From Owenia fusiformis (taxonomy: Eukaryota): a DNA stretch of 64,000 bases. Each line of letters opens with the position of its first letter. Position 1 is the stretch's first letter. Where the stretch lies: positions 3,038,001-3,102,000 of the forward strand of contig CAIIXF020000001.1 in NCBI GenBank assembly GCA_903813345.2, given 5' to 3'. Positions 651-30,729 of the stretch are shown here, piece by piece. The position numbers were made by a program, and so were the translations under genes. The notes beneath the pieces are model-generated. The model was not told the DNA's origin. It made no database searches and was given only the letters and a program-made list of their open reading frames with translations.

Positions 651-881
651 TAAATGCCTGATCTATTCAGAGGAGTAGAGAAAGTATTGTGTTTTACAGG
701 ATTAAACTGTTGTATTTGATGACCTATTTCCGCACTAGCGGCACATTCAAACATTTGAAAATTATAACATAAAGAACTTTTAAAGTCACATTTTAAAAAA
801 ATGTCTCAAATAGTTTTCAATTATGAAAAGTAATAATTCAACTCTATTTTACTTTACGGGACGGGACTCATTTGCTTCAAG

Positions 882-8235: not shown

Positions 8236-11200
8236 ATGATATTGTTAATATTAGCTGTTTTACCGTTAGTTAATAGCCAAGGTACGTTCTACTTAGAGTT
8301 TCATTCAACATTTATATACAATATTGACCATAAGAGATCATTAGCTATTGAGTATATGATCAAACCAAATTATAACAATACTTTATTTCCGTTAAAACAT
8401 AATCCGTATATACCGTATATGTTTTTTATTTATTAATTTATCGGAATAATGTTAAATAAAAAGGCACACAAAAATAAATATTTGTAGTGCACATATAGGT
8501 TTAAAATTAACCCTTAATGTTTTTGCCATTCACAGGATGGAACTATGGCAGTTTAGGTAAGTTGTTATTCAAATTTATTTAAAAGACAATGGTTTCTAGG
8601 AGACAAAACAATTTTCTTAAGTAAGTTAGCATTATTCAGATCATATACCTGGTATGTTCTCCTCCCAAGATAGACAGATTACGGCTATATAACTGTAATA
8701 CTATATAATTTGACACTCTCTTCAACTGCAGGACCAGTTACATGGGCAGATAACTTCCCGCAATGTGGAGAGGCGAACCAGTCCCCCGTTAACATAGATA
8801 TTGGCGCCGCAGAATATGACTCGAGCTTAAATGCGTTCGGATTCCGTAACTTTGATAAAAAAGCTAATAATGAACTTGAAAATACAGGGACTACTGGTGA
8901 GTATAACCGAAACAAACTATTATATTGATATGCTGTAATATTAATTCGAGTCTAAATATGCTGATGCTAATAAATAACCAAGACTTACGATAATAAGAAA
9001 GGACCATTTTCGGTTTGGAGAATGACGTTCATCGGTAGATTGAAATGTGATATTTTGAATATTTAAGATTTGATTATGGTGATATTTTTATTTATTTCAT
9101 AAAACATATATTAGCGACCCCCCCCCCCCCTCAATATTTCACGTGTAAAAGTCCAATAGACGAAAATCCCAATTTTGGACTTTGAGGTCATTCCTTACGG
9201 TCAAGGTCAAATGTCAAGGTCAAAATGTTGACCTAATTTACTCTATCTGAGTACAGTGTAATACAATGGTTTTTGAACTTTTTGACCTTTTCAAGGTCAC
9301 CCAGAGATCGGATTCCAAAACCGGAAGCATATTTGGAATCGGGCGCTTCTATACTTTATATTTCCTTGGAATCGGGCGCTTCTATACTTTATATTTCCTT
9401 AGAATTAGGATCCAGGTCATACTTTTAAATTATGTCCCACTGGGGTGCCCCATTTTTCAAAGAGGGTCACCCAATTTAAAAACCAGGAATATTTGTGAAA
9501 TGAGAATTGTGAGGAATGGCATATGCAAATTTTGGGTAAAAAATAAAAATTGTTGCTCCTTGTAGGTACAAAAATGTAGAACAATGCTCCTTGTACCGAG
9601 AAATCGAGGCAATATACAAGAAAAAATCCTATTAAAACTATAAGAAAAAGAGTAAAACCAATAGAATGCCAGTTACCTCGATAACAGCATCTAATTAAGT
9701 CTTACATATTCAAAAGATCACATTTCAATCTACTCTTGGAGACTGGATTTTATCTATCCCACATCATTTGAGACTGAATGCTCTATCTTGTATGAGTACT
9801 TGTATCTACAACAATTTTTGAGGTTATGAGTATTGGCTATCAATTGGCTATTAATTTCTAATTTTTTCTTGACTGGTATGCACTTAGAGTTTGCTTTTTC
9901 TTGCTAAGTTCCATTACAACTTTTGGTCCTTTCCCTTTTGGCACTAGTGCTTATATATCTATACAAAAATCAAAATTGTTGGCGACAATGATAACGTCGA
10001 AATAATCCGATGAAATCCATTCTCCAAACCGAGAATGGTCCTTTGAATGTAATTTACGTAGCCCTGATACATTTTCGTTACAATGGAGTCCTTGTGATTC
10101 CAACAATGTTTTAAAACTACACCTCTTCAATTTATGATATCTGTGCGATAAATATGTATAAATCATGATAATTTTGGGTATCAATAATGTTGAAATCGGT
10201 TTTACCACAATAGCAAGAATGTTGCTTGGGGAGAATAAAGGAGTTTTCCTTTACAATGGCGGACTGGATGGCAGATATATCACAGAGGGGTTCCACTTTA
10301 GATGGGGATCTGATCACACAATCAACGGTCGTCAATTTCCACTTGAGGTAAACACCGGTTCCTATTCCACTGGTGTTAAAACACGAATATACCATGAGCA
10401 CATGCTTTGAGCATCCGCGTTGTTTGAACCTACCGCCAAGCACACTTATACATTAAGACCCCTTACACAGTCATGATACCGCCGAGCAAGCTCATTGCAT
10501 CATCGGGTCTGCTTTACCCCCGTGTATTCTACGGATTCATGTGATTAAATGCATTTCCATTATTTGATAATAGCACCTGCTTCATGGGTGGCAAAACTGT
10601 CTACATCTTTGAAGCTATGCAAGAACTTGTTTTACAAACTAGATCGTAGTTTTGGATATTGTCGGATCGTTGTCATAATTGAAATATAATGATGCTTTTT
10701 TGTGAAGCAATTGCGTATTTTTGCACCTGTGCTTATATATTCATACTTTTTTTTAAATTTTAGCTGCACATTGGGAGTTATAGTGCGAAATTCGGAACCT
10801 TTATGGAAGCGATTGGTGCTTCGGCCACCGAACCAGATAGCGTAATGGCCATGGCCGTACTTTTTGAGGTACACATACACTTTGTCATTTCAAACAATTT
10901 TTTGTTCAACTGGGCCGAAGGTAATGCTTAGAATCTTTTTCAAAGTGTGTCAACAATTTATCCTTGATTGAACAGCGTAAATGTCAACAAAAGACGTTGC
11001 TGTCTGACGAAGTAATCAGAAATAGTAAATAACGGTCAATGCTGTCCGGGCCAATATCAGTTCCAATATGATATATGTCCTTCCAGATATCACCCAACGA
11101 TAACGTAGCCCTGGAGCCAATTGTGAATGCACTCGGACAAATACAAACTGCAGGTATGGACATCATTTGGTTACACATTAAATATATACTAGATAAAGTA

Positions 11201-14200
11201 TATCGGATGTCCATAAAAATGAGACACTTTTGACAAATATTTACTCGGCAACTGATGAACCAAATTTAATTCGTACAAAGTAGCCCAGGAGTATGATTGG
11301 CAAGGAACAAATAAATGAAAAAGATCAAATAAATTGTATGTAAATACTAAGAAATTCAAAGTAGCACGTCAAAAAAAGATCCCATACAGAGCAACGCAAT
11401 GAGAACTTCATAGCGGCGTTTGTACCGAAAATGGGAAGCAATTTAACAAGTAATTTCTCAGCAATTGATGAGCAAAATTATTTGAAAACCTTACTTTAGG
11501 ATATCTTCTGCCAATCCTATGAATATATAAGAGATTTTTTACATTATTTGGGTGTTTTTAAATTAAAGACAGTATGTCAAAATAACCAATAGCCTATCAA
11601 TGTAAAAGTCACTTATCAATCCATTTCAATGCAAAAATACTTTTCTGTTTTTGAATATTTGGGAAGAATGAAACGAATTGATTAGACATGACTCGCAGAC
11701 AAACTGTTTTGACTGACTGACAGATGCTATACTACGGAAAGCGAAAGGGGATATACCGCAGAATTTAAAATTCAATGGAGTTTTAACATGGGAGTGATAT
11801 CACACACCGCGGCCCGGTCAGATATATTTTTTTGCGCACTTTATTTATTTAATTCACTTTGCACAACGCGCCCCTGTAATTCATTCAGTGCGCAATTAAA
11901 AATTGTTTATGAGTGATATCGCACACCGCGGCCCAGTAAGATCGATTTCTGCGCACTTTATTTATTAACATACTCAAAATATCGCGCTGAAGCTTGTATA
12001 TGCTTGCGCGATGTAATTATAGTTTTCTGTTAATAAATGCCCAACAAGAAAGGGTAGCACAACGAATTCAACTTTTTTCGAAAGACTGCAGACTTGACCT
12101 GCGAAATTGTAATTTTGGATCACAGTGATGCCTCTAGAGAGGATATCTATGAGAATTACAGATTATAGTGCGCAGAATTATAAAGTCAAACTGACCTAAA
12201 AATGGCAGTACACGGTGTACACTGCCATCTTTCAATAAAGTAACTACAGACCTTCGTATACAAAATACCAGAATGATTGATGTAATACCTGTATACCATT
12301 TCTTCTGGGAGAAGGAAAGTTCCTATATGTATTCCATGGCCGTAGCCAGGGGGCCTCACCCCCCTCCCCCTTGCCAAATATTCGTTCAAAATCATGCAGT
12401 TTTTCACCATTCTTAGCACTTTTCGCATGATTTTTTTGCCATAACTGTCAAAAAACTCCCCCCTCTTGGCAAAATCTCCCCCTTGGTAAAACCACTCCCC
12501 CAGGTTAATCCAGGATACGGGTCTGTATTCTTAGACGAGATTGTTCAAGAACATAAGGTAGACATAAGTGCCACCTGTTAAAAGCTAGGAGATCTTTTCT
12601 AAGTTATTAAGTCATCAATCAGCAGACTGGTAATTGTATCCCCCACCCACTTCAAACTCCATACACTAACATACTATTACAATTTTATCTGTGTTTATTT
12701 GACTGTAGAAGGTGTACATTCATAGCATTGAATTGCATTTCATTGCATTGTATTGTATTGTATAGCACATCATTGTATTGTATTGTACTGCATTTTATTG
12801 TATTGCACTGCATTGTATTGTATTGCACTGCATTGTATTCTATTGCATTATATTGTACGGAAAGCTATAGGGGACATGCGCATAATTCAAAATCGAATGG
12901 AGTTTTAACATGGGAGTGATATCACACACCGCGGCCCAGTCAGATAGATTTCATCGCGCACTGAATGAATTACAGGGGCCGCGTTGTGCAAAGTTAATTA
13001 AAATAAAGTGCGCAGAAATTCCGGCATTCAGTGCGCGATGAAAAAATGATTATCTGTGAATAAATAACGAATAAAAATTCGTGGCACCACGAATTTGATT
13101 TTTTTCGAAAGACTGCGGAGTGAACCAGCGAAATGACAATTTTGGATAATATTGATGGCTCTAACAAGGAGAACTTTGAAATTTCCCGATTCTACCGCGC
13201 AGCACATCCAGGACCATGATGCGCACTTTTATCAGATTCGTTTCTAATATGGTTTCAAAGATAATGTTCATTAAAAGAGGGCGTATGCATACAGATTACA
13301 CATGGCGTTATGTTGAAGTGACCCTTGCAAAGGGTTCCATTGAAAATATATTATTTTGGGCCATTTCATATCTTTTAATTGATATTGTATAAAATATTTT
13401 CAATGTTTGAAAATTATAATCTTATAAATAACATTTTATGTAATAAAACTGTAACGAAATGGTAAATACGGAATATGATGCAATACAATGCAGTGCAATA
13501 TGATGTTATACAATGCAGTGCAATATGATGCAATACAATGTGGTGCAATATGATGTAATACAATGCGGTGCAATATGATGCAATACAATGCAGAGCAATA
13601 TGATGCAATACAATGCAGTGCAATATGATGCAATACAATGTAGTGTAATATGATGCAATACAAAGCAGTGTTATATGATGCACAAAATGCAGTGCAATAT
13701 GATACAATACAATGTAGTGCAATATAATACAATAAAATGCAGTGCAATACGATGCAATACAATACAGTGCAATATAATGCAATACAATGCAGTGCAATGC
13801 AATACAGTGCAAAACAATGCCGTGCAGTGCAATACAATGTAGTTCATTTCAATACAATGCAGTGCAATACAATGTGGTACAGTGCAATACAATGCAGTGC
13901 AATACATCGCAGTTCAATACAGTGCAATACAATGTAGTGCAATGCAGTGCAATAAAATACAATGCAGTGCAATACAATACATCGCAGTTCAATACAGTGC
14001 AGTGCAATACAATACAGTGCAATACAATACATCGCAGTTCAGTGCAGTGCAATACAATTCAGTGCAATACAATACATCGCAGTTCAATAGAGTGCAATAC
14101 AATGTAGTGCAAAGCAGTGCAATAAAATACAATACAGTGCAATTCAATACAATGCAATACAATACAATACAGTGCAATACAAAACAATGCTGTGCAATAG

Positions 14201-17200
14201 AATACAGTACACTGCAGTACAATACAATGCAGTGCAATAAAATGCAGTGTAATTCAAGACAATGCAATAAAATACTGTGCAATACAGTACAGTGCAATAT
14301 AATACAATGCAGTGCACTGCAATACAATACAGTGCAATATAATACAATGCAGTGCACTGCAATGCAATACAATATGGTGCAGTGCAATATATTGCAGTGC
14401 AATTCAAAACAATGCAGTGTAATACAATGCAGTGCAACACAATGTGGTACAGTGCAATACATTATAATGCAGTGCAATACAATACAATGCAGCGCAATAC
14501 AATGTAGTACACTGCAGTACAATACAATGCAGTGCAATAAAGTACAATGCAGTGCAATATAATATAATACAGTGCAATACAGTACAATATGATGCAATAG
14601 AATACAATGCAGTGCAATACAATACAATGCAGTGCAATACAATAAAATGCAGTACAATACAATACAATGATGTGCTATACAATACAATACAATGCAATGA
14701 AATGCAATTCAATGCTATGAATGTACACCTTCTACAGTCAAATAAACACAGATAAAATTGTAATAGTATGTTAGTGTATGGAGTTTGAAGTGGGTGGGAG
14801 ATACAATTACCAGTCTGCTGATTGATGACTTAATAACTTAGAAAAGATCTCCTAGCTTTTAACAGGTGGCACTTATGTCTACCTTATGTTCTTGAACAAT
14901 CTCGTCTAAGAATACAGACCCGTATCCTGGATTAACCTGGGGGAGTGGTTTTACCAAGGGGGAGATTTTGCCAAGAGGGGGGAGCTTTTTGACAGTTATG
15001 GCAAAAAAATCATGCGAAAAGTGCTAAGAATGGTGAAAAACTGCATGATTTTGAACGAATATTTGGCAAGGGGGAGGGGGGTGAGGCCCCCTGGCTACGG
15101 CCATGGAATACATATAGGAACTTTCCTTCTCCCAGAAGAAATGGTATACAGGTATTACATCAATCATTCTGGTATTTTGTATACGAAGGTCTGTAGTTAC
15201 TTTATTGAAAGATGGCAGTGTACACTGTGTACTACCATTTTGAGGTCAGTTTGACTTTATATTTCTGCGCACTATAATCTGTAATTCTCATAGATATCCT
15301 CTATAGAGGCATCACTGTGATCCAAAATTACAATTTCGCAGGTCAAGTCTGCAGTCTTTCGAAAAAAGTTGAATTCGTTGTGCTACCCTTTCTTGTTGGG
15401 CATTTATTAACAGAAAACTATAATTACATCGCGCCAGCATATACAAGCTTCAGCGCGATATTTTGAGTATGTTAATAAATAAAGTGCGCAGAAATCGATC
15501 TTACTGGGCCGCGGTGTGCGATATCACTCATAAACGATTTTTAATTGCGCACTGAATGAATTACAGGGGCGCGTTGTGCAAAGTGAATTAAATAAATAAA
15601 GTGCGCAGAAATATATCTGACTGGGCCGCGGTGTGTGATATCACTCCCATGTTAAAACTCCATTGAATTTTAAATTCTGCGGTATATCCCCTTTCGCTTT
15701 CCGTAATATTGTACTGTATTGCACTGTATTATATTATATTGCACTGCATTGTACTTTATTGCACTGCATTGTATTGTACTGCAGTGTACTACATTGTATT
15801 GCGCTGCATTGTATTGTATTGCACTGCATTATAATGTATTGCACTGTACCACATTGTGTTGCACTGCATTGTATTACACTGCATTGTTTTGAATTGCACT
15901 GCAATATATTGCACTGAACCATATTGTATTGCATTGCATTGCACTGCATTGTATTATATTGCACTGTATTGTATTGCACAGTATTGTATTGCATTGTCTT
16001 GAATTACACTGCATTTTATTACACTGCATTGTATTTATTGCACTGCATTGTATTGTACTGCAGTGTACTGTATTCTATTGCACAGCATTGTTTTGTATTG
16101 CACTGTATTGTATTGCATTGTATTGAATTGCACTGTATTGTATTTTATTGCACTGCTTTGCACTACATTTTATTGCACTGTATTGAACTGCGATGTATTG
16201 TATTGCACTGTATTGTATTGCACTGCACTAAACTGCGATGTATTGTATTACACTGTATTGTATTGCACTGCACTGTATTGAACTGCGATGTATTGTATTG
16301 CACTGCATTGTATTGCACTGTACCACATTGTATTGCACTGCATTGTATTGAAATGAACTACATTGTAACTGTATTGTATTTTATTGAACTGCATTGCACT
16401 ACATTGTATTGCACTGTATTGAACTGTGATGTATTGTATTGCACTGCATTGTGTTGCACTGTACCACATTGCATTGCACTGCATTGTATTGAAATGAATT
16501 ACATTGTAACTGTATTGTATTTTATTGCACTGCATTGCACTACATTGTATTGCACTGTATTGAACTGCGATGTATTGTATTGCACTGCATTGTATTGCAC
16601 TGTACCACATTGTGTTGCACTGTATTGTATTACACTGCATTGCTTTGTATTGCACAGTATTGTATTGCATTGTCTTGATTTACACTGCATTTTATTACAC
16701 TGCATTGTATTTTATTGCAGTGTAATGTATTGTATTGCACAGCATTGTATTGTATTGCACTGTGTTGCATTGTATTGAATTGCACTGTATTGTATATTAT
16801 TGCACTGCATTGCACTACATTGTATTGCACTGTATTGAACTGTGATGTATTGTATTGCACTGCATTGTATTGCACTGTGCCACATTGTATTGCACTGCAT
16901 TGTATTGAAATGAACTACATTGTAACTGCATTGTATTCTATTGCACTGCATTGCACTACATTGTATTGCACTGTATTGAACTGCGATGTATTGCACTGCA
17001 TTGTATTGCACTGTACCACATTGTATTGCACTGCATTGTATTGAAATGAACTACATTGTATTGCACTGCATGGCATTGTTTTGCACTGTATTGCATTGCA
17101 CTGCATTGTATTGCATTATATTGCACTGTATTGTATTACATCGTATTGCACTGCATTTTATTGTATTATATTGCACTAGATTGTATTGTATCATATTGCA

Positions 17201-20200
17201 CTGCATTTTTTGCATCATATAACACTGCTTTGTATTGCATCATATTACACTACATTGTATTGCATCATATTGCACTGCATTGTATTGCATCATATTGCTC
17301 TGCATTGTATTGCATCATATTGCACCGCATTGTATTACATCATATTGCACCACATTGTATTGCATCATATTGCACTGCATTGTATAACATCATATTGCAC
17401 TGCATTGTATTGCTACGGAAAGCGAAAAGGGGATATACCGCAGAATTTAAAATTCAATGGAGTTTTAACATGGGAGTGATATCACACACCGCGGCCCAGT
17501 CAGATATATTTCTGCGCACTTTATTTATTTCATTCACTTTGCACAACGCGCCCCCTGTAATTCATTCAGTGCGCAATTAAAAATTGTTTATGAGTGATAT
17601 CGCACACCGCGGCCCAGTAAGATCGAGCTGCGCACTTTATTTATTAACACACTCAAAATATCGCGCTGAAGCTTGTATATGCTGGCGCGATGTAATTATA
17701 GTTTTCTGTTGATAAATGCCCAACAAGAAACGGTAGCACAACGAATTCAACTTTTTTCGAAAGACTGCAGACTTGACCTGCGAAATTGTAATTTTGGATC
17801 ACAGTGATGCCTCTAGAGAGGATATCTATGAGAATTACAGATTATAGTGCGCAGAATTATAAAGTCAAACTGACCTCAAAATGGTAGTACACAGTGTACA
17901 CTGCCATCTTTCAATAAAGTAACTACAGACCTTCGTATACAAAATACCAGAATGATTGATGTAATACCTGTATACCATTTCTTCTGGGAGAAGGAAAGTT
18001 CCTATATGTATTCCATGGCCGTAGCCAGGGGGCCTCACCCCCTCCCCCTTGCCAAATATTCGTTCAAAATCATGCAGTTTTTCACCATTCTTAGTAGCAC
18101 TTTTCGCATGATTTTTTTGCCATAACTGTCAAAAAGCTCCCCCCTCTTGGCCAAATCTCCCCCTTGGTAAAACCACTCCCCCAGGTTAATCCAGGATACG
18201 GGTCTGTATTCTTAGACGAGATTGTTCAAGAACATAAGGTAGACATAAGTGCCACCTGTTAAAAGCTAGGAGATCTTTTCTAAGTTATTAAGTCATCAAT
18301 CAGCAGACTGGTAATTGTATCCCCCACCCACTTCAAACTCCATACACTAACATACTATTACAATTTTATCTGTGTTTATTTGACTGTGGAAGGTGTACAT
18401 TCATAGCATTGAATTGCATTTCATTGCATTGTATTGTATTGTATAGCACATCATTGTATTGTATTGTACTGCATTTTATTGTATTGCACTGCATTGTATT
18501 CTATTGCACTGCATTGTATTCTATTGCATTATATTGTACTGTATTGCACTGTATTATATTATATTGCACTGCATTGTACTTTATTGCACTGCATTGTATT
18601 GTACTGCAGTGTACTACATTGTATTGCGCTGCATTGTATTGTATTGCACTGCATTATAATGTATTGCACTGTACCACATTGTGTTGCACTGCATTGTATT
18701 ACACTGCATTGTTTTGAATTGCACTGCAATATATTGCACTGCACCATATTGTATTGCACAGTATTGTATTGCATTGTCTTGAATTACACTGCATTTTATT
18801 ACACTGCATTGTATTTTATTGCACTGCATTGTATTGTACTGCAGTGTACTGTATTCTTTTGCACAGCATTGTTTTGTATTGCACTGTATTGTATTGCATT
18901 GTATTGAATTGCACTGTATTGTATTTTATTGCACTGCATTGCACTACATTGTATTGCACTGTATTGAACTGCGATGTATTGTATTGCACTGTATTGTATT
19001 GCACTGCACTGTATTGAACTGCGATGTATTGTATTGCACTGCATTGTATTGCACTGTACCACATTGTATTACACTGCATTGTATTGAAATGAACTACATT
19101 GTAACTGTATTGTATTTTATTGCACTGCATTGCACTACATTTTATTGCACTGTATTGAACTGCGATGTATTGTATTGCACTGCATTATATTGCACTGTAC
19201 CACATTGTGTTGCACTGTATTGTATTACTCTGCATTGCTTTGTATTGCACAGCAATATATTGCACTGCACCATATTGTATTGCACTGCATTGCAATGCAC
19301 TGCATTGTATTATATTGCATTGTATTGTATTGCACAGTATTGTATTGCATTGTCTTGATTTACACTGCATTTTACACTGCATTGTATTTTACTGCAGTGT
19401 AATGTATTGTATTGCACAGCATTGTATTGTATTGCACTGTGTTGTATTGCATTGTATTGAATTGCACTGTATTGTATTTTATTGCACTGCATTGCACTAC
19501 ATTGTATTGCACTGTATTGAACTGCGATGTATTGTATTGCACTACATTGTATTGCACTGTACCACATTGTATTGCACTGCATTGTATTGAAATGAACTAC
19601 ATTGTATTGCACTGCACGGCATTGTTTTGCACTGTATTGCATTGCACTGCATTGTATTGCATTATATTGCACTGTATTGTATTGCATCGTATTGCACTGC
19701 ATTTTATTGTATTATATTGCACTACATTGTATTGTATCATATTGCACTGCATTTTTTGCATCATATAACACTGCTTTGTATTGCATCATATTACACTACA
19801 TTGTATTGCATCATATTGTATTGCATCATATTGCTCTGCATTGTATTGCATCATATTGCACCGCATTGTATTACATCATATTGCACCACATTGTATTGCA
19901 TCATATTGCACTGCATTGTATAACATCATATTGCACTGCATTGTATTGCATCATATTCCGTATTTACCATTTCGTTACAGTTTTATTACATAAAATGTTA
20001 TTTATAAGATTATAATTTTCAAACATTGAAAATATTTTATACAATATCAATTAAAAAATATGAAATGGCCCAAAATAATATATTTTCAATATTTTAGATA
20101 TATTTCATATTTTAGAATCGAATCTGATAAAAGTGCGCATGTCCTGGATGTGCTGCGCGCTAGAATCGGGAAATCTCAAAGTTCTCCTCGTTAGAGCCAT

Positions 20201-23200
20201 CAATATTATCCAAAATTGTCATTTCGCTGGTTCACTCCGCAGTCTTTCGAAAAAAAATCAAATTCGTGGTGCCACGAATTTTTATTCGTTTTTTATTCAC
20301 AGATAATCATTTTTTCATCGCGCACTGAATGCCGGAATTTCTGCGCACTTTATTTTAATTAACTTTGGTCAACGCGGCCCCTGTAATTCATTCAGTGCGC
20401 GATGAAATCTATCTGACTGGGCCGCGGTGTGTGATATCACTCCCATGTTAAAACTCCATTCGATTTTGAATTATGCGCATGTCCCCTATAGCTTTCCGTA
20501 CTATACACCTGATAACTGGTACAAACGCTATTTAGGTCTCATCGCAGAGCTCCGTTATTGGAATTTTTGGCATGCGATTTTAAATTTCAAATTGTTAGTA
20601 CGCGCACAGGTTATTTACTTTTTCCATATATTTTACAAGTTGCTAATGATACTCCTAGGCTACTTTGTACACATTTTCAGTGAATTTGGTTCATCATTTT
20701 TTGGGACACCCGATATATGTGCAATAAATGTAACATTATTCGGGTTAGAGTATATTTAGTATTTTGTTCTCAGACTCGTGACATTTTACCGCAACATTAC
20801 ATGCATACGTTGTTTAAATCGTTCATTTCCTTACAAGGCTCAAAGGCGAAGATCACAGGTAGTCTCCGATTTGAGGATCTTCTGCCATTCTCCGCAGCGA
20901 CAAATTATTACAGATACCAGGGAAGGTTTTCCAACCCACCATGTTTTAATACCTTGTGGACGGTTTTCGCAGACACTGTTTTGATCTCAGAAAGACAGGT
21001 AACATTCAGTAAATTACATTTGTATAGTTCATGGTTATTTTACGGTTGACCACGAGATGCAATGGGTGTTATCTTGCCTAAATATGTACAGGGTGTCCCG
21101 AAAGTATGCTTCCCCCTAGGCAGACATATACTAATGTCTCCATAGTATGTGTCATTTATAATTTTAAAGCTCTTCCAATGTTACATTGATTTGCCAAGTA
21201 TCATGGTTCAACTCACACATGTTAAAAAGTAACAGGCATTTCAAAAGTGATAAAACCATGATACTTGGCAAATCAATGTAAGTTTGCAATTGTATGAGCT
21301 TTAAAATGATATATGACACATACTATGGGCCCATTGGTATATGTCTGCCTAGGGGGCATACTTTCGGGACCCCCTGTAGGTACTTAATTTATACATTTTG
21401 GAACTTCAAGATAATGGCTTCTTAACATGCGCAACAATTATAATCCCCTAAACAATAAATATTATACTTGCATCTGCTACTTGTAGCTGGAAGCATTCAA
21501 AGGTCTCAATGACATGGATGGAAATCCTTTGAAGGACGTTTTCAGACCAACCCAGGATCTTGGAGATCGTATTGTCAAGTCAAGCGTTCCACCTCAAATG
21601 GAATTTGTCCCTGGTTCTCCACCGAGGAAAGGTCGGTGTAAATCAATCTACCTATTAGTTTAAGACGTTTAATTTACGCAAAAATACTTCAAAAATATAA
21701 GGTTTAATAATTTTCTGTTTCATCATTACGAGGGGTGATCAATAAGTAATGGACGCTTTTTTACACAGATACTTTTTATGGACCAATCCCTTTGATTTTC
21801 TAACCAGTGATGCATCATTCACTTATCTATCAATTCTGAAGATTTGAAGACAAAATATATAATACATGTTGATCTATTCTTATTTCTGTGAAGGAGGTAC
21901 AGGTACCCCGGGACCGACATTTACGTCACATATTCAGTTTTTAGCCAGTTTGGCAAATTTCAGTTACATTTACACTTATTTTATATGCAACAAGTGTTGT
22001 GTTGTTTCAAACATTTTGCTGACTGGTTACACGTAAACAGTAAGTGATGTGATGTCAGAGTGTTGTATGGTCGGGGTTTCCAGGTCAATTTGAGGAAGCA
22101 TTGTGGAAGAAGGGGTTGGTGAGAGAAAGAACCCCCCACTCCATATGGACAATTCACCTGCCCACATATCTCAAAATGTTCAGAAAACAATATTCCTAGA
22201 CCTCAAAATTGAGCTCTTGGCCATTGCACCATATTGTCCAGATCTGCTCACATGTGACTTATTTATTTCTATACTACTTATTTCTATAGAGAAGGGACGC
22301 AGATTTATTGACATTGATGAAATAAAACAACCCGTGCAACTGCATCTTGCTACCATGTCAGAGAATGGATTCAGCCTTGTCTCACAATCTTGAGTTAAGA
22401 GGATGAAGAATTCTGTACATGTAGCACTTGATGGAACCTATGTAGAGGGCCCTGTAGAATGAATGTGACATGAGTACCACATAGTGATGATAAAATATTC
22501 AAAATCAACTATGGCATAACAAAATGGGGTAATTCATGACCATAATGGTTTGTTTTGTTCAGCCTGCATTCAACTGCGTTGCATGTTAAACAAGCTAAAA
22601 TAACTTCAGAATGTTTGACGTAAATGTCGGTCCCGGGGTACCTATACCTCCTTCACGGAAATAAAAATATATCAAAATATATTACATGTTTTGTTTTCAA
22701 ATCTTCAGAGTTGATAGATATTTGAATGATGTATCACTGGTAAGAAAATCAAAGGTATTGGTCTATAAAAAGCATCCGTGTAAAAAAGCGTCCATTACTT
22801 ATTGATCACCCCTCGTATTTATCCTCTGTATGACGTGTCCTTATTATATGTTTGTAATATCATCTGTTTTATCAATGAAGCCTGTGTTGATGTGTTTTTC
22901 GTCATTGACGAGAGTTGCTCTGTGTATGAAGACATGCAGAAAGTTAAAGATTTCATCAAGGATCTAGTTGATGGAATTATTGTTGGAGATGATGCAGTGT
23001 TAATGTCTCTCGTGAGGTATGTAACCGATTTTTATTATTATTAGATTTATTTTCCCTCCATTGATTGGAGATAATATAATAATTATATATTGCAGTATTA
23101 TTGGATGCGTATCAAAATTTAAACAACAATAGACAAAATAGAACTCTAATAAACACCAATAACATTATAAGTAGGATCTGAGAATTGATAAGAGTAGGTA

Positions 23201-26200
23201 TAATGCACAAAGATGAACATAAAAAGCTATGAAATACTTGGAACCGCATACATCTTCCCCAAGGTCGATGTTGCATGTCCAGGTGGTCATTCTTGCTACG
23301 TGTTAAAATATTCTATGCAATTCATACGAGCTATACATGATTTGACAAGATAAAAATTTTCCTTATGAAAATACACCTGTATTCTGAGATAACTGACGTT
23401 CCGTTGGTCACACACGGTGCTCATCACACACTCATCGTAGGGGGACGGCCTGTTTATATATAACTATTAACTTATACATAGCTATCCCAGGTAAATCTAA
23501 TTGACTCCAATCCGGGCGAGGTACATGTTCTGTATAATAGTGCTCACGCGTTTAAGTCCACTTTCGTTAATACAGTTGTCTCCCCCGAAGAGAGCTCGCA
23601 GTTTCATTGAATTTGACATTGCACTAATGTTTGGTACTCCATCTAGAATTGTATTTAATGTGCCCCTATTGTGCAGTCTACATTTTAAGACAAAGTGTTC
23701 AAGCGTTTCAATTTCCTCATAGCAGCTCTCACAAAACCTATCTCTCAACGGTATTCCCTCCCATTCGCCTGTGTTAATTCTTAAGCGGCCTTGTCCGACC
23801 ATTAAGCGTACCATTAAGCGTACCATTAAGTTACATCTTTTAATGAACCTTGAATCACTCCTAGCTATTGTCCACCATATACAGGGTTTCACACATTGGA
23901 TAACTTCCTTATAGAGTGTTAGTTCTTTATATGTGTTAACTTCGTGTCTCCAACCATCCAAATCGCAATTCCTTATCACATTCTGCACATGGCGTTTCCA
24001 TGTCAATTTTGATGGATTTGCACCATTGTCCAGTACTTGATATATCGATAGGGAGGTTAAGCTACACATTTTGAATAAAATTTTGAACGCTTTCACGTAC
24101 AAGTCTTCTTATAGCAATTAACCCCCTTATGGGTAAGCCGAATATCCCAAACTATAATAAATCAACCGATGAAAAAATGTCAAATCCTCTTTCCTCACCA
24201 TTCAGTAAGGAAATTCTTATAGAACATGCTGAAGAACAAAGTAAAAACTATTTCCAATCTCCTTAACATCGAGATTAAGCCGCCAAAATAGTCCTTAGAA
24301 AACAATTAACAAAGAAGGGTTTCGATCCACATTCCTCAACCTGCATTGTTTTAGCATCACTTAGACTAATCGTTGAATGTTTCTATATTCATAAATTATT
24401 ATACAAACAGTACATGCTTACCCCTACCCAAGCTTATAGAAATTGACTTGATTTACAGATACAGTGCTCCAGTGAATATGAACTTCTTCCACAGTATGAC
24501 GACCAGCAATGATGTTGTAAAGGGATTCATAGATACACAGCCATTAGGACAACAGAGCACTTGTAGAACGCATACCTCACAAGCTCTCAAGTTCAATTCA
24601 AATAGGTCAGTACACACGGTGACTATCCAGGCCCCGTATATCGCGAGCAAGTTCCCACTGACAAATAAAGATATAATGAGTTTCACTTACTAAAGCTTCA
24701 TAGATATTTTATATATCAATTTTATCATATCTCTCAAGGCCCCGATTCTAACATGAGTACAACATGTTAGAATATGATTATCAGAATCACGTGGTCTCTC
24801 GTGTCTTCAGCGCTTGTAAATTAGCCTTACTATTACTTTTTTTAATAAATGAATATTAATAACAGAATTTGGTGTAAAGTTCGGGTAATTTTCTTGTACT
24901 ACACATATTTCGTCACACGGTTGTTTTAGGTTCTTTGGTCTAGGCAAGTGGGACAACGAAACTGCAGAGCGTGACTTTGGAATTAGGAATATTGCCCCTG
25001 ATGTCATGATCATAATAACAGATGGAACCTCTATTCCGATGAAAGGTCGACCTTGTAAGCGTAACATATTTTTAATATTAAAAGGAGTTCCTTTTAACCC
25101 ATTTATCTTATAACTTAACTAATGTTAATAGAGCATAAAGAGTAATAATGCCAAGTTAACTTATGCTTCGAATTAATTTTCAATGAATAATATTAACTTC
25201 ATTCAAATAAGTGCAAATGCTTTCCTAGTCTACTTTTGCATTAACCTTTAAGCACAACCTAAATAAATAAAAGGGAAGATATATATACCCTCCATCTGTA
25301 AAGAAAAAAGGTGCAAGGTCCTTTATTAATCATATCTTTTTATTGTCCATTGTTAATGTTATACTAAACATCCAGAAGTATATGTACGTATACTTTGACC
25401 AAATGGGGAAAATTCCAAAGAATTCCGTTTATGTCGTGAAGAGTTAAAACGAATTGAATGGAACCACCCACAAAAGCATGAGTGTGACTTTTTACTATAA
25501 ATTGACGTCATAAATATGAGAAATGCGATAAAGAGCATTTTTCTCAAAAAGGGGATCTTATGCGACGTGAAATTAAATTGTAAGACTTCCACCAGTTATT
25601 CACAATATTTATACGATGTGTCTTTAAGAGTTTAGTGAAATAATAATTTTTATGATTGATGCACCGTTTTTTCTTTGAAGAGGGCACATGTATTGACAGT
25701 CGATAACTGGATAATATTGATGATGTCATCGACATTATATAAACTGTAATAACATTTTCATTGATCACTAGCCGCCTTGGCAGAGGCCGCCAAACTGAGG
25801 GCACGGGGAGTTGAGATTTACACCATCGGGCTGATAAATCAAAATGAACGTGATGGTTCAGTGGAACTGCGAGGCTTTACTGGGGGAAATGATGACCATG
25901 TCTTTGATATAAATGATGAAGGTTTAGCCGGACAATTTGCGGATATCATCAACTCTTACAAGACATGTACAGGCGACAAAGGTAAGGCATTTTCGACCCG
26001 ATTTTATAATTATTTTGTCCAAAAATTTAACACTTAAAGGGTGACGCATATCGTTTAGCAAATCGAACGCTCGTTTCTGGTGTTGCTCACCGTTTAGTAT
26101 AAAAGGCCCGATCCCGGAATAATACTCAAGGGTTCACAGGTTCGATGTCGTTGTGTCAACACCTCTAACTGTTATATAGCATAAGTATATTATAGATCGT

Positions 26201-29200
26201 CACACATTTATAAAAGGGTGATTTTTATTTTGACAAATCAATTTCAAATTTATGGGTGAAGTTTCAGGATCTTCTATTTGTGTATAATAAGGAAAAATTG
26301 GCATCTAAATTTCCCCATAACGTAATAGCACACAGCTTGGCATATGAAATATCCTACACAAATGAAACAAAGCAGTTCTAACACAAGGATTTATATTGGC
26401 TGTTGTACATGTACTGTTTGAACGCATTCACTCCATGGATAACGTTTTCAAAATCATTATAAACGGATTACTTTATCTCAAAGACAATTTCAATAAACTG
26501 GATTTTACAGAACTCCCCTTATTTCTTAAAAATGGACTGATCCAGTTGATTCGCCTGGAGCCGCCATATTGTTTTTATACGGGATGCTTATCGGAACCCT
26601 TTAAGAAAGCAGCTCGGACTAAGAAAAGGAAAATAACAAAATTTAATGTTTAATTGCTGTCCATTTGGAATTTCAGAAAACAAAATTTGAGAAACAGAAA
26701 TATTCTATCATAAAAATTCTTATTTTTCATCCAGATTGTTCCCAACTGGACATGGTGTTGGTGATAGACACGTCACAGAGTTTACTCAAATCTACTGAAT
26801 GGGAACGGATCAGGAAAGACCCAGATAACCACCATGAGATAAAATCTGTAAATCTGATGGCTGTTAAGACATTTTTCAAACAGTTACTAGCTGCCGTCCC
26901 AATAGGTATTGTTATTTGGCATCTGGTCGTATGAACCTGTAGTTGGTTTTGGCAGTAGCTGAATTTATTAAATATACCGCGGGAGTATTGGAGAGGCATA
27001 ACTAAGGCCAAATGTATACCAAACAAGACAGTATATCTATAAATACCAAATAACATTCGGCTACGGTCTCGTCGCTAGCATTCGAATCTCCGGTTCCAAT
27101 CTAGGCTATTCATATCATGGAATAAAGGTGCAATACAAATTTGAAGGGTTCCACTTCATATTAAATATGATTTACTTTTGGGTAAGAGTCCTAAAAGCTA
27201 TACCAACGTGTACAACGAGATTTGACAGACGCAGCTCATGACTATGATCGCCGCCTATTTTAATTCAATACTAAATTTGAAAACACTATATCTCATCAAC
27301 TTTAACAAGTCCATCAACTTTTTACTGGGTTATAAAAGTTTGAGAGTAAAATATTATTATTTCATGAGATGAATCTATGCTAAAACAGAAGGTGTCCAGT
27401 AAAAGTGCTAACATGTTTATTGATGCATCTCTTATTTATTTCCATCTAGGCATGGATAAAACGAGAGTGGCCATCGTCTCATTCGATGAAGTGGTTACGA
27501 TCCACCAATACCTCGATGAAACTACGGACTATGCAGGAACAAAGGATACGTTGACAAATAGTGTCATTGATTATACAGGCGTTGGGACACGTACAGATGC
27601 AGCACTTCAATATGTTCTTAACAGGTGAGGTTAGCTGAATTAGCAACCAAAAACTAAATATCTTATCTCTGATTGATAATGATCAATGCTTGAAATTTGA
27701 TGAGTTCATAAGGGTTTTTGTGAAAACGATTCTAGGACCAATTACCCTTCGGCTGTCTTCAAAGTTAAGGTTAACTGTGTAAAAATATGCAGAGAACATC
27801 TTCTAATAACAATACAGAACACTAAAAGCAATTCAACTGACGGATTCAGTCATTAATTCCACGGCCGTTGGTATCAAAAGAAGTCGGGGGATTACCATAT
27901 ACTGTTTAGAGGAGACTTCTACCTCCACTTCCAGTTTCATTTTCATAACTTTTGATTCCCACCATGCTCTAAACGTAAAACATTTATTCTTCAGATGGAT
28001 ATTCTATTTGTTGAAGTCAAAAATAAATCCTTTAAATCAATTTAAGAATTATCACACTATGGAAAACAATCCATTCTTCTCTATGGTTGCAAAAAGTTCA
28101 ACAAAGCAAAAACACCATACGGAACATATGTTCAATGATGCATGGTTGAACACATTTGTGTTTAGGGTATTGAAAGGAGATCGTGGGGATCGTGAGGATG
28201 TAAACAACTTCATTATGATGGCGACTGATGGAGTTGCGTTTCCATGTTGCACGGCTGGCTGCTGCATGAGTAGCACGGGAAACAACACATGTCCAAGAAC
28301 TGACTACCCATGTATCTCCAAGAGTGAAGCCATAAAGGTGAGTCCTTTTCGTTCTCAGAATATACTAGATTACTTCAATCACAATGTTATCCGAATTTAG
28401 TCTAATTCGAACATCCACAATTCATCATATATCAGATATTGTTTAAGAATTATTGGACAACCCTTTCATAACAACTTTTTCCAGGATGTGAAACTTGCTG
28501 CTCATGAACTGAAAGAGAATTGGAGAAATGATGTCTACATACTTGCGCTTCCAAACAAACCCGATCGAGAAGATAACTCAGCTAAGAAACAAATGCAAAA
28601 GAGAATAGGTTTGTATGCTTATATATTATATATTATTATATGAAGGTAGCAAAATTGATTTCTTTTTATGGAACATACCTGTAAAATTGTTAAATATGAA
28701 GATGGCTTTTGTGCGGAGAAGGTAATTCATTTACAACCTGTGATATTGATTTTCGTGTATTAATTTTGTATTTTCTATTGTAAACAGTGGTTAATAAGCC
28801 CAGTGTGGGCTAGGTAAAATTGAAATTAATTTTGTATATTTTATAATTGAATTGTAAGACTAACCACTATAAATAAATAATTAAACTAAACTAAACTATA
28901 TAAATACTGAAACATATTTGCGAAGTCAAAGAACTTTATGAAAGATTTTTTGTACATTTTTTGAAATTTTATTGTTTATTGACCAAACATCTCTTAACAA
29001 GGCAAAATAACTTTAATCAATGTGTCTAATACTCGTTATGTATACCAACAGCAATGTCCTTATATGAGGCACTTGTAAGAAATACAGCTACCGACATCAA
29101 AACACTGGAACAGTTCAATGAGTTGGAAAACATCGTGAAAGAGATGATCAACAGAGTTTGTGCAGCTGCTGATGGCCTCTGTAAGTAAATTATGTGTCAT

Positions 29201-29423
29201 GAGCCTCAATGCATACAGCGCATGTAAACCCTTATTCTAGCATTAAGATTTATTTTATTTTTTATTTTAACAGTTTTTCGACGTAATCCAAGAAACGGAT
29301 TGTAGTGAATAAAACCAGGCATAAAAAATTATTGTGTGCACCATCCACAGATACATAAAAATTACAAAAATCCAGTAATACGGTATTCTATACTTTTCAG
29401 TTTTGTCTGCTCCGGTTCCTTAA
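8236..29423 (+). CDS. Secreted alpha-carbonic-anhydrase-related (probably acatalytic) domain plus two von Willebrand factor A domains, about 751 aa
   Basis: Exons: 8236-8281, 8536-8556, 8732-8896, 10214-10347, 10764-10868, 11087-11153, 20838-20998, 21487-21631 (signal peptide and CA); 22881-23016, 24459-24605, 24930-25054, 25772-25981 (VWA1); 26735-26905, 27450-27624, 28166-28337, 28485-28608, 29052-29180, 29401-29423 (VWA2). All introns GT-AG with matching phases; total 2256 nt, no internal stop. Signal peptide MILLILAVLPLVNSQ. CA motifs WNY..GP..W, QSPVNI, FHFRWGSDHTING..FPLELH, YYRYQG...PPC...WTVF, RPTQ.L..R.V. VWA MIDAS motifs DESCS..T..TDG and DTSQS..T..TDG. Confidence 0.9.
12335..12525. 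mobile_element. Small GC-rich MITE inside arm A (also present in the other two arm A copies)
   Basis: Imperfect TIR CATGGCCGTAGCCAGG / CCAGGATACGGGTCTG, flanked by direct repeat TATTC (12330-12334, 12526-12530). Confidence 0.55.
12856..15705 (-). mobile_element. Complete inverted copy of the same TIR element, inserted in the satellite of copy 1
   Basis: TACGGAAAGCTATAGG at 12856 and CGCTTTCCGTA ending at 15705; own 6-bp TSD ATATTG (12850-12855, 15706-15711); arms are near-identical reverse complements of 11733-12725 and 19956-20500. Confidence 0.9.
13475..14715 (-). repeat. Variant pentamer satellite (CAATA/CAATG/CAGTG)n inside copy 2
   Basis: Visible 5-bp periodicity. Confidence 0.95.
15712..17413 (+). 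repeat. Variant pentamer satellite (TATTG/CATTG/CACTG)n of copy 1, continuing 12725-12855
   Basis: Visible 5-bp periodicity; resumes directly after the ATATTG TSD. Confidence 0.95.
17414..20500 (+). mobile_element. Third, direct-orientation copy of the TIR element (arm A, satellite, arm B)
   Basis: TACGGAAAGCGAAAAGGGGATATACC at 17414; arm A near-identical to 11733-12725. Left flank TATTGC does not match right flank CTATAC. Confidence 0.85.
18407..19955 (+). repeat. Variant pentamer satellite of copy 3
   Basis: Visible 5-bp periodicity. Confidence 0.95.
21089..21376. mobile_element. Palindromic Tc1/mariner-type MITE
   Basis: CAGGGTGTCCCGAAAGTATG / CATACTTTCGGGACCCCCTG with TA flanks; the two halves are inverted almost throughout. 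Confidence 0.85.
21729..22815 (+). mobile_element. Internally deleted mariner element with transposase remnant
   Basis: TIR CGAGGGGTGATCAATAAGTAATGGACGC extending about 200 bp; TA TSD. ORF 22103-22393 contains LHMDNSPAHIS...APYCPDLLTCDLF, matching the mariner HDNAPAH..S and PYSPDLAP.DF catalytic motifs. Confidence 0.9.
23497..24102 (-). mobile_element. 5'-truncated non-LTR retrotransposon (C-terminus of ORF2)
   Basis: 201-codon ORF containing LRINTGEW..IP..DRFCESC...IETLEHFVLKC, the CCHC zinc-knuckle region typical of LINE ORF2 C-termini. Antisense within an intron. Confidence 0.8.
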
Positions 29424-30729
29424 AATGATTTACAGCGCTTGGTATGGCTATGAGACGGTGGCGAAGAGTAATGGACCAACCTTACAACTTGTTATTTACT
29501 CAGTAAAAAAACTTATTGACAATTATTTGAAACTTGTCAACTTGTGTTGTTAAATATACAGACACTATCTCTATGTGGCATCGTTCAGTTTTAATCCACT
29601 TAAAAGATTTGGAAATCAAGTACCATCTCTTAGATACCGAACATGAATGAAAAAATCACTTAATTTACAGTTATTTGCTAATGTACTGGTCCCTATCTGG
29701 TTACATCTTTATGGCAAAATTGATGAATTTCCTTTAAAGTGTGGGCCTGACCCGGCTACGTATAGCACAGAGTTTATACTGGCGGATTAGACTAGTTCAT
29801 TTTTATATGTGTGTGAAAGCTTTCTCTTATTTGCGTTTTTTCGTTTAGTACGTTTTTTTATAATTGCCGAGGTCTTATAACCGGGATAAAACAATGATTA
29901 TCGTTGACTGCCCACACACAAAACATACGTTGAGTGAACAGTGTTATTACAAACAACAGGCTTTAGAGTACAAAGCGTAGTGTGATAATAAGCTGTACAC
30001 TACCACTGCTGCATGTACATATTACTAATTTACTTGTTGTTGTGTTTGTCACCTTTAAATTTTACATTTCAAAATTGTCATTTTACATGTCATAATTTGT
30101 TGGTTTCATTCGTTTAGTCAATCAAAACATTGTAAAACAATAGATTGTCTGTTACGTACAATCAATTTTGTTCAGTTTTGATTAGTTGTCAGAATAAAGT
30201 TACGTTCATCTGAATCCATGTATCAAAACAAAAATCCTATTTTCACTTCAAAATACTTCAGAGATGAAGGCTCGGAATTTTCACATGCAATAACTTATTG
30301 TCGTATTCTTTATTTTATCTTCTCGATAGTAGCATTTAGTCGCACATTTGATGCCAGGTCACCTTGTCGCGTACCTCTTGGTGAACCCCACATTTATGTG
30401 TGTACTCATGGAAGTAAATTCCCCGGCTACATGTGTAGCCGAGAGCCACAAACTTTTCAACAGGTTCGAAATGACCAATTTCTCTCATATATACTCTAAA
30501 TATTTTATTATTTAGCACCTACAAAGTATTGCTAATAACCATATGTAATTTCAATAAGGAAACTTATGTGGCTACATATAAATTCAATATCAACACTAGC
30601 TGTTCTCTCAACACGTCCTGGCTTACATTGTGGTGCAGACTGTGTGGTGACAAACCCTGGATTTTCGCTATTTATAGTTTATCAACACCTGGACGCATGC
30701 GCATTTTATAGTTTATCGGGCACTTTAAG

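Follow-up and report, generated by a model that had tools for sequence, protein, structure and literature searches.

A transcript-supported Owenia fusiformis gene joins a carbonic-anhydrase-like domain to two VWA domains in a candidate matrix or adhesive scaffold

The carbonic-anhydrase-like (CA) and VWA exons of the Owenia fusiformis gene described here (exons 7-18) are carried by one mRNA and form one spliced gene, not two; its 751-aa product, P0001, is read here, with a probability of about 0.6, as a secreted, soluble and non-enzymatic protein acting as a matrix or adhesive scaffold. The gene lies within a window of 64,000 nucleotides (the whole stretch of DNA analysed), and P0001 is, letter for letter, the translation of an 18-exon model on the + strand (8236..29423). 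It is already present in the public genome annotation as 'unnamed protein product'; the gene is therefore undescribed, yet not undiscovered.

Gene structure and transcript evidence

The model has 17 introns, all of them GT..AG, and every element that an earlier note on this DNA had described, from the letters alone, was found in its place. The main features of the locus are the following.

877..2452, + strand: the last large exons of P0002 (754 aa), the paralog lying upstream in tandem, by tblastn
8236..8281, + strand: exon 1, start codon (ATG at 8236) and signal peptide (MILLILAVLPLVNSQ/G), ending in phase 1
8536..21631, + strand: exons 2-8 (8536-8556, 8732-8896, 10214-10347, 10764-10868, 11087-11153, 20838-20998, 21487-21631), alpha-carbonic-anhydrase-like domain (aa 17-266) and Pro-rich linker (aa 267-281, VPPQMEFVPGSPPRK), by Pfam and fold match
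11154..20837, + strand: intron 6 (9,684 nt), non-coding and repeat-filled
22881..25981, + strand: exons 9-12 (22881-23016, 24459-24605, 24930-25054, 25772-25981), VWA domain 1 (aa 282-488), phase 1 at both ends, by Pfam PF00092
26735..29423, + strand: exons 13-18 (26735-26905, 27450-27624, 28166-28337, 28485-28608, 29052-29180, 29401-29423), VWA domain 2 (aa 488-745), which carries a Cys-rich insert (PCCTAGCC...C...PC) and is followed by a short tail; 29423 is the last position of the stop codon

The introns at the two domain junctions, 21631/22881 (CA/VWA1) and 25981/26735 (VWA1/VWA2), are both in phase 1, and the 18-exon model bears out the earlier note on this point. An alternative donor for exon 11 at 25045 is ruled out by the RNA joint 25054/25772 and by the annotation, as is a stop after '...GLCK' by the joint 29180/29401 and the annotation; the donor at 25054 and the final mini-exon 29401-29423 had been chosen rightly. 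Intron 6 contains three (ATTGC/ATTGT)n-type minisatellite arrays and inverted arms of about 1 kb that are 99% complementary; the long 'CIVLHCIALY' open reading frames (ORFs) in it were rejected as coding sequence, being the repeat translated. Elsewhere in the window there is a 500-N gap (42184-42683), and a Pfam search of 13 other ORFs returned one EGF exon, a weak DDE_3 relic and nothing else.

Contigs from four runs were examined over the stretch 20700-29500 (exons 7-18); the RNA nature of the 12 candidate runs is a guess, none of them being on record as RNA. In three of the four (two samples, two studies), spliced contigs bridge the CA/VWA1 and VWA1/VWA2 junctions and eight more introns. 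At least 10 of the 11 introns of this stretch appear as joints, GT..AG in each case and of the length predicted, 24605/24930 not being among the joints listed. These comprise 20998/21487, inside the CA part, four joints of the VWA1 exons (21631/22881, 23016/24459, 25054/25772 and 25981/26735), and all five introns of the VWA2 exons. The 21631/22881 joint occurs in X2 and X3, which come from one sample, and in X6, from another study, whose record extends 124 letters to one side of it and 133 to the other. Upstream of this stretch, the link of exons 1-6 to exon 7 is supported by the annotation, by the paralogs and by X2/X3, in which a loose end of 9 letters equals the end of exon 6. The k-mer depth of the junction contigs reaches 4,360-26,180 in X2/X3, versus 63-285 in non-repeat intron bins, which fits a strongly expressed product, although depth is a poor measure of expression.

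The earlier note had proposed one continuous spliced frame and named RNA reads across 21631/22881 as the check; the bridging of that junction in X2, X3 and X6 confirms that the CA and VWA exons are not separate genes. That neighbouring CA and double-VWA genes had been joined by prediction, read-through or mis-assembly is a reading to which the weak donor at 21631 (GTCGGT) and the presence of the 500-N gap in the window, though elsewhere, lend something; it is already refuted for the 21631/22881 junction, which contigs of two studies splice exactly and across which the frame is open and in phase 1. The DNA-like run X1, in which the introns are covered at a depth of about 7-12, with no joints and with adapter-like loose ends, holds no joined form. 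With a CA domain followed by VWA at four more Owenia loci, in a family present on three chromosomes, such an artefact is hardly credible for the gene as a whole.

The CA-like and VWA domains

In P0001, Pfam matches PF00194 (Carb_anhydrase) at aa 23-266 (1.8e-58, profile positions 2-253 of 254), PF00092 (VWA) at aa 285-469 in VWA1 (2.4e-36) and PF13519 (VWA_2) at aa 494-625 (1.2e-12), with a second VWA stretch in VWA2; no further Pfam domain is found in the protein at E <= 0.01. Single exons already match, CA in four and VWA in three of the 16 ORFs tested, and because of the whole-protein scores a chance origin of these predicted domains is excluded. The AlphaFold model has a mean pLDDT of 80.2, with the CA block mostly above 90 and an inter-domain arrangement that is unreliable (pTM 0.57). 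Foldseek aligns this model to CA II with a TM-target of 0.87 and an rmsd of 2.2 A (range over CA chains 0.85-0.88), and VIA-align places the CA part at Z 29-33, with the PTPRG CA-like domain at 33.1 and CA IX at 31.0. The full alpha-CA fold claimed earlier is thus recovered by profile, by fold comparison and by the structure prediction that had been suggested as a check.

The zinc site is broken. The residues equivalent to 94, 96 and 119 of CA II are H105, R107 and H124 in P0001, i.e. H-R-H, an Arg for a zinc His that presumably resembles the condition of CARP VIII. The triad is further degraded in the paralogs (H-R-Q in P0002, N-N-T in P0003, K-N-Q in P0153/P0023, F-F-M in P0004), so that none of the five Owenia family members with a CA region has the full His94/His96/His119 set and three lack any zinc His; H-H-H is found in 169 of the 198 CA domains taken from 130 related proteins. 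The Thr199 column is Ser in P0001 and P0002. P0001 keeps two of the three zinc His (H94 and H119) together with E117 and H107, and residual metal or anion binding by its CA domain would remain conceivable. The Cys pair of the CA domain is also kept (the Cys23-Cys203 pair; Cys34-Cys215 in P0001). Since P0001 and P0002, 74% identical overall, are 72% identical in the CA domain alongside 77% in VWA1 and 75% in VWA2, the CA domain appears to be under constraint rather than decaying. Because the triad is broken in all five CA-bearing members and the domain is nevertheless conserved, its function would be independent of zinc catalysis; judged from these residues it is a pseudoenzyme, acatalytic in type as the earlier note had supposed.

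The metal-ion-dependent adhesion (MIDAS) motifs of both VWA domains are complete, and metal binding is predicted for both. In VWA1, the residues D291-x-S293-x-S295, T364 and D407 are all invariant in five paralogs, as are the flanking Cys283 and Cys483; in VWA2, the motif (D-T-S-Q-S, the T of GTRTD and the D of ATDG) is conserved in the four sequences that have this domain. VIA-align matched model residues 487-748 (VWA2) to collagen VI alpha3 N5 (Z 21.7) and the integrin alpha1 I domain (Z 21.4), with Factor B, C2 and integrin I domains among the fold matches. This search reached the CA part and VWA2, and barely sampled VWA1 alone; Foldseek on the full model gave CA chains only among the matches listed, and the ESM Atlas search returned only VWA clusters at a score of 0.76, below the meaningful level. 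The presence of two VWA domains, as first noted, stands on the Pfam matches and the two intact motifs.

In the signal peptide of P0001 the hydrophobic core spans about 10 residues; cleavage after S14, judged by eye, would place V at -3 and S at -1. An in-frame stop lies eight codons 5' of the ATG, and the N-terminus is also kept in P0002 and P0003. We found no transmembrane segment in P0001 (19-residue windows peak at a Kyte-Doolittle value of 1.38), in agreement with the earlier note, no G-X-Y run of four or more repeats, and no visible nacrein-like repeat insert. Thr/Pro-rich, mucin-like linkers lie between the VWA domains of P0003, P0153 and P0105, and the four full-length paralogs are acidic (pI 4.95-6.37). 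The CA Cys pair, the Cys pairs flanking the VWA domains, the mucin-like linkers and the acidic pI are signatures expected of extracellular proteins, and P0001 is predicted to be secreted and soluble, without a membrane anchor.

The Owenia family and its relatives

The family counts at least six gene models in Owenia, spread over three chromosomes: P0001, four loci in which VWA comes after CA, and a sixth model that is partial and lacks the CA part. The nearest is P0002, whose tblastn matches lie at 877-1059 (96.7%), 1999-2106 (97.2%) and 2324-2452 (100%), and whose accession number is adjacent to that of P0001. In a FastTree phylogeny of 198 CA domains, which includes no PTPRG-type sequence because none was among the 150 matches, the fusion CA domains are monophyletic with a support of 0.93; the family therefore arose by a single fusion followed by duplication. 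Exon shuffling of phase 1-1 modules is the most likely way in which the fusion itself came about. The Owenia clade adjoins Limulus CA15-like and CA3-like sequences (P0088 and P0074 forming its sister group) and Owenia's own CA. The fusion CA domains would thus derive from ordinary secreted CAs, and not from shell-matrix CAs, which suggests that the triad was lost independently from ordinary secreted CAs.

No protein with both CA and VWA domains was found outside Owenia, either in two word-index searches covering 5.8 billion proteins or in the top 150 matches of a HMMER search of 1.84 billion representatives. Within these collections, the CA+VWA+VWA architecture, as read from predicted domains, is found in Owenia fusiformis only. 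Full-text literature yielded no description of a CA+VWA fusion or of these Owenia genes, and the term 'carbonic' is absent from the accessible portion of the Owenia genome paper (PMC9977687). Among these proteins and papers, such an architecture does not correspond to any characterised family, in agreement with the earlier note.

The known systems each share a part of it. The best match of the CA part, both in sequence (1.2e-34) and in fold (Z 33.1, rmsd 1.7 A, 244 residues aligned, 36% identity), is the CA-like domain of PTPRG; PTPRG/PTPRZ (PDB 3jxg, 3jxf) have in common with P0001 an extracellular alpha-CA fold, an incomplete zinc triad and the Cys23-Cys203 pair, but in them FN3, a transmembrane helix and two phosphatase domains come next, whereas P0001 continues with two VWA domains and has no anchor. 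The likeness to PTPRG drawn earlier holds insofar as it is the best structural match, but the lead over catalytic CAs is small (about 2 Z units, 33.1 vs 31.0; 123 vs 113 bits). Relative to PTPRG, P0001 has a 7-residue gap in the C-terminal segment, which we take to be the contactin-binding hairpin. A dead CA fold kept as a binding domain is likewise seen in the secreted CA-related proteins CARP VIII/X/XI and in vaccinia D8 (the latter among the fold matches at Z 28.3); these are, however, stand-alone or viral membrane proteins without VWA, and the tree indicates no orthology. The closest CA sequences among the matches listed in the 1.84-billion search include Physella P0006, Pecten P0010, Pinctada P0008 and Scylla P0007. 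The mollusc, crustacean and Limulus secreted alpha-CAs, tandem or single, have H-H-H in most domains and no VWA, unlike P0001. Nacrein-type proteins belong to a calcified matrix and have both the catalytic triad and a repeat insert that is acidic or G-X-N, whereas the triad of P0001 is incomplete and no repeat insert is visible.

On the VWA side, the best sequence relatives of both domains are the N-terminal VWA domains of collagen VI alpha3 (7e-19) and the matrilins; collagen VI alpha3, also the best fold match of VWA2, shares the extracellular, Cys-bracketed VWA type, but P0001 has no triple helix, EGF or coiled coil, and its VWA domains number two. PTMP1 of the mussel byssus (PDB 4cn8) is, like P0001, secreted, with two tandem VWA domains and a short Cys-containing link; a single HMMER alignment spans both VWA domains (2.3e-8; query 4-344, chain 55-371), and VIA-align gives Z 20.7 over 357 residues. 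PTMP1 differs in having no CA domain, an identity of about 21% and a domain orientation that is not superposable (rmsd 14.4 A). It is described, in the part of PMC4754843 consulted, as a VWF-like, load-bearing matrix protein.

Possible functions

The matrix or adhesion function is inferred from the domain types. With its signal peptide, CA-like domain, short Pro-rich hinge and two VWA domains, P0001 could serve as a scaffold, bivalent or trivalent, within secreted material, for instance the tube lining or cement, mucus or cuticle. The metal-ion sites of both VWA domains may be where matrix partners are bound or cross-linked, as with collagen VI and PTMP1; the dead CA domain may have become a module for binding ligands, on the pattern of PTPRG/PTPRZ, CA10/CA11 and vaccinia D8. 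Biomineralisation, also raised in the earlier note, is unlikely and would be the weakest of the options named there: no paralog has an intact enzyme site, and the CA domains seem to come from the ordinary secreted type.

CA10/11 bind neurexin and PTPRG binds contactin, and on these models P0001 may alternatively have no structural role and act as a soluble ligand in recognition or signalling, its dead CA domain binding a receptor or sensing HCO3- and its VWA domains serving immunity or adhesion. The top rank of PTPRG in both sequence and fold speaks for this, as do the Factor B, C2 and integrin I domains among the VWA2 matches and a lineage-specific expansion of a kind common among immune genes; in the part of PMC8773835 available, the PTPRG domain, which lacks key His residues, is a proposed HCO3- sensor and a contactin partner. 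However, the PTPRG margin is small, the C-terminal gap falls in the presumed hairpin, and the fusion clade stands beside Limulus CA15-like sequences and Owenia's own CA and not a PTPRG-type one, in a tree that included none; contigs of such great depth, and mucin-like linkers, would better fit a bulk secreted product. We regard such a ligand as possible, if rather unlikely. An active carbonic anhydrase tethered to a matrix, hydrating CO2 in a mineralising or pH-controlling matrix to which the VWA domains anchor it, in the manner of nacrein, is a good deal less probable. The fold is indeed complete, and H94, H119, E117 and H107 are kept in P0001; yet H96 is Arg, Ser stands in place of Thr199, and the domain is conserved in a family in which no CA-bearing member has the full triad. 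The Owenia tube, moreover, is agglutinated and non-calcified. CA and VWA both recur in skeletal proteomes, as separate proteins in the accessible portion of PMC11959691.

A more specific form of the scaffold reading is an invention of the Owenia lineage for tube building, which we hold to be speculative and rather doubtful. The CA pocket evolved to hold CO2/HCO3-; once dead, it might grip carbonate or anionic surfaces (shell fragments, sand-grain coatings, sulfated glycans) while the MIDAS-bearing VWA domains tie it to the fibrous lining. If true, the protein would represent an underwater adhesive scaffold of a new type, one that sticks by means of a pseudo-enzyme.

What the family offers is a transcript-supported, lineage-restricted architecture, apparently put together from phase-1 modules, that duplication then spread over at least six gene models and in which an enzyme fold was retained after the loss of its catalytic metal site. 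Should P0001 prove merely another secreted matrix protein, an 'unnamed protein product' would still be corrected to a member of a defined family. If, on the other hand, the product is located in the worm's tube or cement, the combination of a pseudo-CA with MIDAS adhesion domains would be a new bioadhesive or biomaterial building block, and also a tractable case for learning what dead carbonic-anhydrase domains bind.

Gene structure and transcript evidence

Between 8.2 and 29.4 kb, stop-to-stop ORFs of the + strand carry pieces of alpha-carbonic anhydrase (CA) and VWA domains, and scanning 16 ORFs with Pfam placed PF00194 in four and PF00092 in three. In a search with 69 in-frame residues from exon 12, two proteins matched (298 candidates), both Owenia fusiformis entries labelled 'unnamed protein product': P0001 (751 aa, 100% identical) and P0002 (754 aa, 78%). 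The gene model, built by splicing the ORFs at canonical splice sites and then compared with P0001, comprises 18 exons and 17 GT-AG introns, and its translation is exactly P0001; the exon 11 donor (25054) and the last exon (29401-29423) proposed in the earlier note both agree with this protein. The domain junctions at introns 21631/22881 (CA to VWA1) and 25981/26735 (VWA1 to VWA2) are both phase 1, as had been claimed, and exons 1, 2 and 3 also end in phase 1. Since the flanking exon ends are in phase 1, both the CA module and VWA1 qualify as 1-1 modules.

Twelve sequencing runs were found (three studies, one organism), none of them recorded as RNA. Contigs from four (X1, X2, X3 and X6; X2 and X3 are one sample, X6 belongs to another study) were placed on 20700-29500, which covers the exons 7-18 side only. 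The contigs of X2, X3 and X6 jump predicted introns exactly, at GT..AG ends, with skips of 488, 1249, 1442, 717, 753, 544, 541, 147, 443 and 220 nt. Among the matches listed, at least 10 of the 11 predicted introns in this interval are confirmed as skips, and none is seen for the 324-nt intron 24606-24929. X1 behaves like DNA, because its contigs have no joints, cover introns at low depth and end in adapter-like loose ends. An annotation artefact is excluded for the disputed CA/VWA junction 21631/22881: contigs bridge it in X2 and X3 at a depth of about 13,600, and a 257-letter contig of X6 spans it with 124 letters on one side and 133 on the other. In X2/X3, a 9-letter loose end before 20836 is identical to the end of exon 6. 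Exon contigs of these two runs lie in the 10^4 depth range, versus 63-285 for intron bins free of repeats; such values would fit very strong expression in that sample, although depth reflects expression poorly.

Other features of the window
877-2452, + strand: last large exons (3' end) of the P0002 gene, tblastn 96.7-100%
11154-20837: intron 6 (9.7 kb), with three arrays of about 1.2-1.7 kb each in alternating orientation
22094-22393, + strand: 99-aa frame in intron 8, likely a DNA-transposon remnant (DDE_3 transposase, weak match at E 0.0038, which misses the Pfam cut-off)
23497-24108, - strand: 203-aa open frame in intron 9, faint zf-RVT match (E 0.19), probably a retroelement relic
32045-33243, + strand: two adjoining open frames (185 and 222 aa), the most GC-rich part (0.39)
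42184-42683: assembly gap (run of 500 N)
49075-49338, - strand: exon-sized ORF with an EGF-like domain (PF00008, 1.3e-5)

The intron 6 arrays are a 5-nt-based minisatellite (ATTGC/ATTGT, higher periods 15-40), bordered by inverted 1,035-nt arms with 99% complementarity (11824-12858 versus 14582-15616), and further copies lie near 17.6-18.3 kb; a foldback-type mobile element or a duplication made in assembly could account for the structure. The frame at 23497-24108 is covered by contigs of all four runs at moderate depth, with a common 12-nt deletion at 23798. In intron 12, summed contig depth at 25992-26580 reaches about 10^5 in X1-X3 with many variant letters: this is a very high-copy repeat that dominates the depth table and is not an expression signal of the gene. 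Neither frame at 32045-33243 has a Pfam match; the pair may represent a mobile element or a single-exon gene. The EGF-like ORF is part of another gene, located downstream on the minus strand. GC content is lowest at 42-44 kb (fraction 0.235), partly owing to the gap.

A CA fold with an incomplete zinc site and two VWA domains

In Pfam, P0001 matches Carb_anhydrase (23-266, 1.8e-58), VWA (285-469 plus a second stretch, 2.4e-36) and VWA_2 (494-625, 1.2e-12), and no other family at E <= 0.01. A short hydrophobic leader of 15 residues opens the protein; we read it from the sequence as a putative signal peptide, and the CA fold, which starts with W-x-Y, follows immediately. The earlier suggestion that the protein lacks an anchor holds: no 19-residue hydropathy window comes up to transmembrane values (maximum 1.38), nor is the C-terminal end (…AAADGLFLSAPVP) hydrophobic. 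The AlphaFold model (40-row alignment) has a mean pLDDT of 80.2 and a pTM of 0.57, with the CA block mostly above 90 and low values in the linker (271-280) and a few loops. Foldseek aligns this model to CA II with a TM-target of about 0.87 and an rmsd of 2.1-2.5 Å. Among the 48,161 representatives compared with VIA-align, the top match of the CA part is the PTPRG CA-like domain (Z 33.1, rmsd 1.7 Å, 244 aligned), closely followed by CA IX, XIII and XII (31.0-30.8), with vaccinia D8 at 28.3.

Zinc positions (CA II numbering) were read from a HMMER alignment to PTPRG and from multiple alignments.

Owenia paralogs: residues at 94/96/119 and chromosome
P0002: H, R, Q; 62.2 Mb chromosome
P0001: H, R, H; 62.2 Mb chromosome
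P0003: N, N, T; 62.2 Mb chromosome
P0004: F, F, M; 34.9 Mb chromosome
P0153/P0023: K, N, Q; 31.9 Mb chromosome
P0105: further copy, 400-aa partial model adjoining P0153 by accession number; 31.9 Mb chromosome

The H-H-H triad is present in 169 of 198 CA domains cut from 130 fetched proteins, a count that required at least 180 matched positions and excluded the partial CA of P0004 for length. Thr199 is replaced by Ser in P0001 and P0002, and the Cys23-Cys203 pair typical of extracellular CAs is retained. By its zinc positions the domain is a predicted pseudoenzyme; it is not decaying, since its identity between P0001 and P0002 (72%) is near that of the VWA domains (77% and 75%).

In VWA1, all five aligned paralogs have D291-x-S293-x-S295, T364 and D407 unchanged, together with C283 and C483 on the flanks. 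The four sequences extending into VWA2 keep its motifs DTSQS, GTRTD and ATDG and share a Cys-rich insert (PCC…CC…C…PC). Judged by these motifs, both VWA domains, complete at their metal site (MIDAS), look functional. Thr/Pro-rich, mucin-like linkers separate them in P0003, P0153 and P0105 and are absent in P0001 and P0002. The closest PDB sequences to the VWA-VWA part are collagen VI alpha3 (7e-19) and the mussel byssus protein PTMP1 (2.3e-8), the latter in a single alignment spanning both domains. For VWA2, VIA-align gave collagen VI alpha3 N5 (21.7), the integrin alpha1 I domain (21.4) and VWF A1 (21.1). PTMP1 was aligned over both VWA domains (357 residues) with an rmsd of 14.4 Å, so its domain orientation is not comparable with the model.

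Distribution and origin of the family

A word-index search with P0001 (7,992 candidates scored) returned four proteins, all from Owenia. Exhaustive HMMER searching of 1.84 billion representatives gave 6,075 matches at E <= 0.001, of which the best 150 were examined; on local re-scoring of 152 fetched proteins, only P0001-P0004 and P0023, all five from Owenia, matched both the CA and VWA parts. The others had either CA domains only, among them many mollusc and crustacean proteins with tandem CAs, or VWA domains only, of collagen VI type. Searching with a profile built from the five paralogs gave six proteins at E <= 1e-10 (233-1470 aa): four, all from Owenia, carry PF00194 and PF00092, one is a collagen VI-like protein from a gecko, and one is a copepod protein in which a CA is joined to another family. 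The CA-VWA-VWA order, which the earlier note did not recall as a characterised family, was thus not found outside Owenia among the best 150 of 6,075 representatives or in the profile search.

The gene of P0002 (74% identical to P0001) is the immediate upstream neighbour in tandem; the two genes run head-to-tail with about 5.7 kb between them. The annotated start of P0153 is 23 residues ahead of a signal-peptide-like MMLILLLLPLLAYGQ, and is probably too far upstream. In an approximate FastTree phylogeny of the 198 CA domains, from which PTPRG-type sequences were absent, the fusion domains group in a single clade (support 0.93), next to CA15-like and CA3-like proteins of Limulus and the 284-aa CA of Owenia itself. 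This single clade beside ordinary CAs points to one fusion, presumably from an ordinary secreted CA, followed by duplication.

Many of the closest CA relatives among the matches listed (P0005-P0043) have 2-6 tandem alpha-CA domains, some repeats lacking zinc histidines; these proteins, from Physella, Pecten, Pinctada, Scylla and unnamed metagenome/transcriptome contigs, are a separate, little-described architecture.

Proposed function and significance

The gene encodes, on one mRNA, a secreted-type, anchorless and apparently abundant product that joins a zinc-site-deficient CA fold to two MIDAS-complete VWA domains. We propose that P0001 would act as a non-catalytic scaffold, in which the VWA domains would use their metal sites to bind matrix partners, like those of collagen VI, matrilins and PTMP1, and the CA-like domain would be the third module for binding, in the manner of PTPRG/PTPRZ. 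According to the review PMC8773835, the PTPRG domain lacks key histidines and is a proposed HCO3- sensor, with contactins as possible ligands. A catalytic, biomineralising role is unlikely (the earlier note had listed biomineralisation among the candidate functions), because paralogs without any zinc His keep the CA domain. A signalling or immune ligand is a live rival to the scaffold.

Each domain belongs to a well-known family. None of the papers searched describes a CA + VWA fusion; among the matches examined, the combination, with its logic of a dead CA plus MIDAS, was seen in no organism but Owenia, in collections that may miss other oweniid data. The proteins are already public as uncharacterised entries. 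Their architecture is real and lineage-restricted, but extracellular modules are commonly shuffled.
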